Source of the DNA: Schmidtea polychroa
Lineage: Eukaryota
Direction of reading: 5' to 3'
DNA: 64,000 nt
Assembly: GCA_044892525.1 (NCBI GenBank)
Contig: CM097885.1
Span: forward strand, 21,702,001-21,766,000
Numbering within the stretch: the first letter of the stretch is position 1; every line of letters starts with the position of its first letter. Positions 54,677-55,739 of this stretch are shown piece by piece. The notes under the pieces were generated by a model. The model was not told where the DNA came from, searched no databases, and was given only the letters and a program-made list of their open reading frames with translations. The position numbers and the translations under genes are program-made.

Positions 54677-55739
54677 AAGTAAATTGTTGAGAACTTATTA
54701 AATAAATAATTTTTTTTGTAGTTAATTTTTATGTATTTAGTTATTAATTTATATTAATTTATAAAAATTATCATTTAAAATTAACTTAAGAAATAATCAT
54801 TAAAAGTTTCTATTAAAAATTGACTTTAAAAATTATTTCTTAAAAAATTTCATTAAAAAATTTTAATTCTCAAACACTGACTATTATTCCAACGTTTTGT
54901 TAATAAATTTAAAACTTTACTTTAATTTACTTATGACATTAATTTAATTTACTTATTTAGCATTAATTTAAAATTTTAGCCCATTGATTACTTAATTTAA
55001 AAATTTATATACCTTAATTTACTTTAATTTAAAAGTTTTGACCATAATTTTCTGTAATTCAAATATTTACCATGCTTTTTAGTGTAGGCCACCTTTTTCT
55101 ATTGAAAATCCCGGGACCAGGGAGACCCCCTCACTATAGTCTGAAAAATCCTTGGCCTTTTTTCTATTGGACCTATCTATTTGTATTGAAAAATATATGT
55201 GTGGCACTCTGCATTAAAAGATTTCTGCAAATATCTGAAAATCATTATCGAATGATGCCTAATTTATCGAATATTGATAGATATTGATCCAAAAAGATAT
55301 TTTATAAATATTTCCAAATTAATAAATTGACATATTTCATTGATATGAATTGATTTTAATTGATTATATGCTAATTTGAATTATAACTGACCATATCTAT
55401 GTTATAAATATTATTTAATAGTGAAATAAATTATTCGCAGATGAGATTTTTAATATTTAATAATAAGACATAATCATGGTTTCGGTGGTCATGGGCAATT
55501 CCTTCAACCGGAGGTTACGCGATCACGGAATTCCTTGTCCATTAATGTCGATGTTTTATGTGATGGGTGGAGCAATATGTCTTCGAGATCCATACCGTAC
55601 ATTTAAAGCACAAAACCTGAGTAGGTAGATAGTGGCCCACTGCAGCAATGACCCCCCCCCATGGGGGGGGGGGGGTTCTGCTGCAACTTTTTTTTTGCTG
55701 CAACTTTTTTTTTGCTGCAACTTTTGATTACGCAATTTT

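Follow-up and report, generated by a model that had tools for sequence, protein, structure and literature searches.

The two hairpin-bearing motifs in the window, i.e. the whole 64,000-nucleotide stretch of Schmidtea polychroa contig CM097885.1 that was analyzed, are both ends of one very abundant Polinton/Maverick family. Across this family the arm pair, rather than the C/G core, is the constant part of the hairpin. We see an even chance that these ends consist of a box at a fixed position and a mirror arm produced by template switching, with pairing at positions 23–28 (counted from the first base of the element) probably selected as part of a protein-primed origin. The hairpin is real and, as it seems, so far undescribed, within an element class that is itself known. 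It is less dramatic than first described and is partly explained by a known mutational process.

The features of the window copies are collected in Table 1. The 14-mer AGTAGGTAGATAGT is common to end A (6207) and end B (55620), as given in the preliminary description, and a third copy at 5676, overlooked in that description, is truncated directly after the box. The other elements of that description were also present: in end A the arms GGGAACAA (6228–6235) and TTGTTCCC (6263–6270), which enclose a C11 run and a G-run with a single A interruption, plus the extra TTGTTCCC at 6288–6295; in end B TGCAGCA at 55641–55647, the C9-AT-G13 core, and TGCTGCA at 55679, 55696, and 55713. The motif ATTACGCAAT of end B, a putative bZIP-like site, was found in 134 of 135 ends of an unbiased sample. 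Each of A and B is a truncated left end without a partner: no right end was found for either. For B, a search for the minus-strand head with up to two mismatches in the window and the next 20 kb returned none except repeat look-alikes. A coding Polinton lying 8–17 kb beyond the window was rejected as a partner of the window copies because it belongs to a sister family. Remnant A gave 88–95% matches to the arms of non-coding palindromic copies and is bracketed by PI3Ka and PI3_PI4_kinase matches at 2195 and 13309. Remnant B, at its positions 636–2567, is 99.3% identical to an arm (L039) with a GGGAACA (A-type) end. B sits in a 3871-bp tandem array; one unit earlier, the same flank runs on into host sequence.

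Table 1. Features of the Polinton ends A and B and of the stub, in window coordinates
Feature	Position	Strand	Basis or remark
End A, 14-bp head	6207..6220	+	sequence match
End A, hairpin: GGGAACAA - C11 / interrupted G-run - TTGTTCCC	6228..6270	+	sequence, predicted fold
End A, distal direct copy of TTGTTCCC	6288..6295	+	
Remnant A, ~5 kb non-coding arm	6207..11197	+	within intron of host PI3K-family gene
Stub, 30 bp (head, spacer, box)	5676..5705	+	broken at start of C-run
Host 6-mer adjoining end B	55614..55619	+	left half of would-be target duplication
End B, invariant 14-bp head AGTAGGTAGATAGT	55620..55633	+	exact matches in the genome: 2,266
End B, variable 7-bp spacer GGCCCAC	55634..55640	+	reshuffled against stem type
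End B, fixed-position box = 5' arm TGCAGCAA	55641..55648	+	family pattern NG[GC][AC][AG]CAA, positions 22-29
End B, homopolymer core C9-AT-G13, loop region	55652..55675	+	order and G-run variable in family
End B, 3' mirror arm TGCTGCA	55679..55685	+	predicted pairing with 55641-55647 on both strands; covariation
End B, two more direct mirror-arm copies (55696, 55713)	55696..55719	+	T-runs between
End B, conserved motif ATTACGCAAT	55727..55736	+	
Remnant B, repetitive terminal region of Polinton-family arm	55620..58186	+	

The 781-Mb genome contains 2,266 exact matches to the 14-bp head (1130 forward and 1136 reverse; the reversed control gave 2 + 2), and many plus/minus head pairs face each other 15–18 kb apart. 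Among 46 end pairs, which were not a random draw, 42 are flanked by exact 6-bp target duplications, three by duplications with one mismatch, and one by a duplication offset by an extra AGT. The ends are of the AG/AGT type, and the terminal inverted repeats (TIRs) measure about 1.3 kb in the coding copy used for comparison and about 7 kb in several non-coding copies. The protein-primed polymerase (pPolB) is a 1433-aa ORF with DTDS and KxxxNSxYG motifs; its own profile match is to Endonuclease_7 only, while it is 64% identical to a sister ORF matching PF03175 (E 1.4e-24), and a near-identical fragment of it matches PF03175 at E 6.6e-6. An RVE integrase is split over two ORFs (rve, E 1.3e-8; rve_3 and chromo weak), a packaging ATPase (Pox_A32, E 6.6e-7) is encoded in essentially identical form at at least 150 places in the genome, and an adenovirus-type protease (Peptidase_C5, E 1.4e-5) was recognized from a partial ORF. 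A 408-aa capsid-like ORF had no Pfam or PDB match and no relatives in the viral contigs scanned with it, and it reached an ESM Atlas score of 0.98 to clusters with PF21738 in 14–30% of members, a lead toward a double jelly-roll major capsid protein. By the criteria given in PMC8097293 and PMC6431247, the elements are Polintons/Mavericks. They share with those described there the length of about 17 kb, AGT-type ends, 6-bp target duplication, pPolB, RVE integrase, packaging ATPase, C5 protease, and a candidate double jelly-roll capsid ORF; they differ in that the head reads AGTAGG, not (AGT)2, and in that many copies are non-coding multi-kb palindromes. By analogy with the adenovirus and Maverick end motifs treated in PMC8097293, the 14-bp head is likely to be the core origin and integrase end.

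Several further members of the family were recorded. Four non-coding elements of 15–17 kb (L035/L036, L043/L044, L047/L048, and L049/L050) have arms that are 98–99% inverted copies of each other over about 7 kb, and a miniature element of 1.4 kb (L225/L226) has both ends and an exact target duplication. The flanks of the head pairs L064/L065, L091/L092, and L218/L219 are identical in inverted orientation and lack a target duplication; these are inverted duplications taking in host DNA, either real or assembly-made. One coding copy contains a TBP-like ORF (L034:7354-7866; PF00352, E 5e-16), which is 98–100% identical across 33 copies, and a 128-aa ORF (L034:6194-6577) with a match to Adeno_PX (core protein X) at E 2.7e-6 over 19 residues.

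For comparison of the stems, 208 distinct ends were collected and 186 were parsed; in the other 22, the hairpin was mostly deleted or cut. One row, the second head in L141, is a degenerate end. The parsed set was enriched for rare forms by stem-specific searches; its unbiased subset comprised 135 ends. The preliminary description had called the stems of A and B entirely different, which goes too far. Aligned in register, GGGAACAA and TGCAGCAA as 5' arms agree at 5 of 8 positions, and stepwise intermediates (GGAA, GCAA, GCAG, GCCG, and GGAG) connect the stems. Five inner stem classes were distinguished, GAA, CAG, CAA, CCG, and GAG, each a single step from another, with the rare classes CCG and GAG represented by 60 and 11 ends genome-wide. 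The box pattern at positions 23–29 was present in 2,083 of the 2,266 ends.

Complementarity of the arms, in contrast, was kept across the variants as had been claimed. Positions 24–26 were fully Watson-Crick in 174 of the 186 parsed ends, where shuffles gave a mean of 51 and at most 72, in 128 of the 135 unbiased ends, and in 61 of 73 distinct haplotypes (shuffle 16). The pair types were C:G/G:C at position 24, A:T/C:G at 25, A:T/G:C at 26, and G:C/T:A at 22, the last position being unpaired in 38 of 186 ends. The covariation analysis that had been proposed showed shared variants at 24–26 to be compensated, mismatches there being single and one-sided; the pattern named as a refutation, stem mismatches building up without compensation, was not found. 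These tests used our own shuffles, which ignore shared descent, and a count from the variant network reduced the 186 ends to only about 4–7 independent compensated events. Compensatory change across lineages is present, in that small number of events only. The uncertainty coefficient to stem class was 0.39 for the spacer and 0.86 for the 3' arm (0.30 versus 0.74 for haplotypes), and 11 spacer types each combined with 2–5 stem classes. Because the adjoining spacer predicts the stem class far less well than the 3' arm 25–40 nt away, plain linkage is no explanation. Private changes amounted to 11 in 1620 bases of stem and 3–7 in about 1470 bases of unpaired motifs; similar rates are expected for copies decaying after insertion. 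On either strand, the predicted single-strand folds of ends A and B were far better than those of shuffled sequences (z −3.2 to −4.4, matched by 0/200 shuffles), in agreement with the folding proposed earlier, and the C/G run supplied much of their folding energy.

The C/G core had been taken to be conserved, and this holds for A and B only. Among the 186 parsed ends, 139 had the order C-then-G, 23 G-then-C, 20 C only, and 4 G only; the corresponding numbers in the unbiased ends (n = 135) were 120, 7, 4, and 4. A G-run came first in about 81 of 1130 forward ends, across three stem classes, and eight insertions carried a C-only loop at both ends. The core as an invariant is ruled out by these G-first ends and both-end C-only insertions. 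The predicted stem was kept in C-only ends (17/20 on the top strand and 14/20 on the bottom strand) and in 0/4 G-only ends. The eight insertions with a C-only loop at both ends show the G-run to be dispensable. The G-first cores have a central CA in the L121/L122 lineage and its reverse complement, TG, in L150; this difference might reflect a loop inversion, and single transitions from TA explain it equally well.

Assembly or sequencing error at homopolymer-rich hairpins is a scarcely credible source of these patterns. C- and G-run lengths do differ between both ends of nearly every element, but many independent insertions with exact target duplications show the same stem and core types at their two ends, and the end is covered by independent short-read contigs. 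In contigs of four public runs from two studies, depth rose steeply at 55614–55622 and pieces began at 55620, confirming that end B exists outside the studied assembly. Artefact is refuted for the stems, whereas the run lengths may partly be error.

How one arm could follow the other is suggested by template switching in quasi-palindromes, in which, according to PMC8604942 and PMC8794818, one arm is copied from the other in a single event. Those cases resemble the present one in that arm templates arm, with multi-base compensated changes and spacer rearrangements; they differ in that they concern chromosomal genes and host polymerases, whereas here the tip of a self-synthesizing element in many copies is affected. 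Four adjacent bases behind the 3' arm (AACT → CGTA) mirrored the spacer TACG in 18 ends, and 43 other TACG ends were without the mirrored CGTA tail. The G-first cores are palindromes whose center is the TA linker and whose mirror junction is exact. Over positions 22 and 24–26, agreement with the 5' arm fell from the first copy (143/186) to the next (122/176) and the farthest (14/43). The earlier proposal that the motif is homogenized across its copies was borne out by this near-to-far gradient, the nearest copy matching best. In addition, the TIR is rich in slippage repeats, and the same family forms multi-kb palindromes. Taken together, the sequence patterns make it likely that the second arm was re-copied from the first during replication. 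No strand-change joint was seen in public contigs among the 15 of 22 joints listed, and these contigs are uninformative on intermediates. Since template switching writes both arms at once, compensation alone is no proof of selection; the ends warn clearly that covariation, even when perfect, can be produced in this way.

A serious, if somewhat doubtful, alternative is that function resides in the head and the 5' box alone and that the mirror arm and the direct copies are scars without function, regenerated again and again by template switching and slippage. The homogenization of arms by template switching is documented in PMC8604942 and PMC8794818, the TIR is full of slippage repeats, the templated multi-base tracts and the near-to-far gradient require no selection, and a sister family (see below) does without the mirror arm. 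The facing ends were informative here. In the 46 pairs, 37 were intact and paired at both ends, and none had the same mismatch at 24–26 or the same deletion at both ends. If regeneration were fast, mismatches at 19–22 and in linkers should vanish, yet both persist in lineages; spacer swaps leave lasting mismatches at 19–22, and repair is thus not instant. If it were slow, lineages mismatched at 24–26 would be expected, but none was found at both ends in the 46 pairs, although chimeras do occur at single ends (L161, L231, and L235). Chimeric or arm-less ends were one-sided wherever a partner was found, and arm-less ends had an intact partner in 4/4 cases matched by target duplication. One defined arm-less class made up 10 of the 2,266 ends, with none in facing pairs. 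These patterns are no more than suggestive of selection on pairing. The hairpin zone was broken in 11 of 147 unbiased ends, and later landmarks were lost in 0–4 of 135; this fragility fits a structure that forms in vivo, not necessarily one with a function.

Sister families were represented by 10 copies of at least 40, with the target duplication checked in three of the main eight. These eight copies have a different head and a pPolB 65% identical to that of the main family. Positions 22–29 held GGGAACAA or GGGAGCAA in 8/8 left ends, and the TA-C/G core was kept in most of the eight, but no inverted copy of the box occurred within 1.2 kb in 8/8 ends. Because this family keeps the box without the mirror, the box predates the near mirror arm, so that the direction of copying is likely from box to arm; for the same reason, the mirror arm is unnecessary for Polintons in general. 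In a second sister type (n = 2), the head is a third one and the box is related; the mirror lies at a distance of about 100 nt and is perfect in one element, with three mismatches in the other. Head type goes with pPolB type across the three families, and polymerase and head seem, from these sequences, to have been exchanged together in one element. The sister Polintons L252/L253 share a 96% identical integrase/ATPase-side module with L260/L261 and L254/L255, and their TIRs are unrelated; the pPolB of L260 is a third type, 66–68% identical to the other two. The first 100 nt of L244, L250, L252, L256, and L258 contain two to three TGACGT motifs, presumably CRE-like, between the box and the TA-C/G core.

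The fixed distance of the box from the end in three families could also mean that the inverted and direct copies are one degenerate double-stranded site, comparable to an adenovirus auxiliary origin and recognized by one protein of the host or the element, complementarity merely following from the inverted orientation. We regard this as improbable. Each end carries 1–5 copies, motifs that we take to be bZIP-like lie nearby in both families, and adenovirus ITRs place host-factor sites beside the core origin (PMC11285639). A degenerate site, however, leaves the base-for-base match among the copies of one end unexplained, as well as the mirror tracts reaching into the spacer, and template switching would still be needed.

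The preliminary description had also offered the stem as a subfamily-specific barcode for protein binding, read by a co-evolving element protein, and had asked whether stem type tracks the phylogeny of such a protein. Coding copies were compared to address this question. The tree comprised 34 of 42 coding stretches, after removal of four without an end in range, three partial ones, and one duplicate; the rare classes GCCG and GGAG were absent from the coding copies tested. Stem class changed 10 times on the tree versus 13.4 times after shuffling (p 0.012), a weak signal that came from one young clade, and tests within groups gave p 0.92 (CAG versus CAA) and p 1.0 (GGG versus TGG). No class-diagnostic residue was found in seven ORFs (33–34 copies) or in pPolB (18 copies, six per class). 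L148 and L149 are coding and identical over 4.9 kb, and their stems differ. Moreover, seven elements with exact target duplications bear two different stems, each matched to itself, e.g. GGGAACA opposite GGCAGCA; three of these came from 37 pairs and four from four chosen as discordant. A need for identity over the stem from end to end, as in a panhandle, is ruled out by the same seven elements. Stem type was thus shown to be independent of the encoded proteins and of the opposite end. Between families, head and pPolB type do go together, but for the stem a barcode is very unlikely indeed, and tracking of protein phylogeny amounts to the young clade's signal.

Ideas on the copying of Polintons/Mavericks are drawn largely by analogy from adenoviruses. 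The hairpin probably belongs to the signal that sets off replication of the element. pPolB would start at the 14-bp head and might stall in the C/G homopolymer about 30–55 nt in; the stalled new strand could then fold back, copy its own 5' box, and realign at the T-runs. A change in the box would reach the nearest copy in one step and farther copies later by slippage. The switching enzyme would be pPolB and not host replication, a view helped by the large palindromes of the family. On the displaced single strand, the stem would keep the terminal 21 nt in single-stranded form, an origin complete in itself, and if each end were such an origin, ends of different type would be workable on one molecule. 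A more ambitious version, which we consider possible but rather unlikely, holds that fold-back at the C/G run rewrites the very stem needed on single-stranded DNA, that each end with this self-repairing origin is an autonomous module, defined by its structure and swappable between elements, and that the same fold-back in mid-element makes the giant palindromic satellites. The dispensable G-run weakens the case for C/G fold-back as the only route. If this version were true, the 2,266 ends would amount to a mutational scan, already performed by nature, of the replication origin in a Polinton.

Among known systems, the terminal hairpins of parvoviruses/AAV lie at the very end and are self-priming, and such a fold-back structure can tolerate sequence change; here the hairpin begins at a distance of 21 nt from a protein-primed end, in an element with a pPolB of its own. 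The present ends may be likened to a modular protein-primed origin such as the adenovirus core plus auxiliary origin or the fold-back ends of Streptomyces. According to PMC11285639, the adenovirus ITR origin belongs to a protein-primed linear replicon with an invariant terminus followed by a box at a fixed position, and the displaced strand can re-anneal via the ITRs; it is described as a set of binding sites with no hairpin inside an end, whereas Polinton ends here may differ from each other in the box region, each being self-complementary. Streptomyces telomeres with Tap/Tpg likewise combine terminal-protein-primed synthesis with fold-back palindromes on a single-stranded end, but these palindromes, according to PMC4513846, keep their sequence and have a dedicated binding protein, whereas the stem here varies under one protein set. 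A sub-terminal Polinton hairpin is undescribed in the surveyed literature, though Repbase entries or supplements could describe one: as far as their accessible text goes, PMC8097293 and PMC6431247 describe only the terminal 6-bp motif of Polinton ends, and the word hairpin is absent from the former and used only for Helitrons in the latter. The end resolves into modules, namely a head that goes with polymerase type, a spacer that is exchanged freely, a box held at the same position in the sister families as well, and the mirror arm. Paired, mismatched, G-less, and arm-less ends exist naturally, and the cis-requirements of a Polinton origin can therefore be tested without design.

Other repeats were noted in the window. 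The tandem array of the 3871-bp unit (99.8–99.9% identical) occupies 43617–55619 and stops exactly at end B. Every unit includes a fragment of the Polinton TIR seen at end B, in inverted orientation, together with a histone H2B-like segment that is frameshifted (PF00125, E 1.8e-6 at 54503–54673). A Gag-like ORF with a zinc knuckle lies at 20655–23288 on the minus strand and a reverse-transcriptase fragment at 13787–14215 on the plus strand; the identical 1660-bp direct repeats at 17721–19380 and 31734–33393 are likely the LTRs of a young retroelement.
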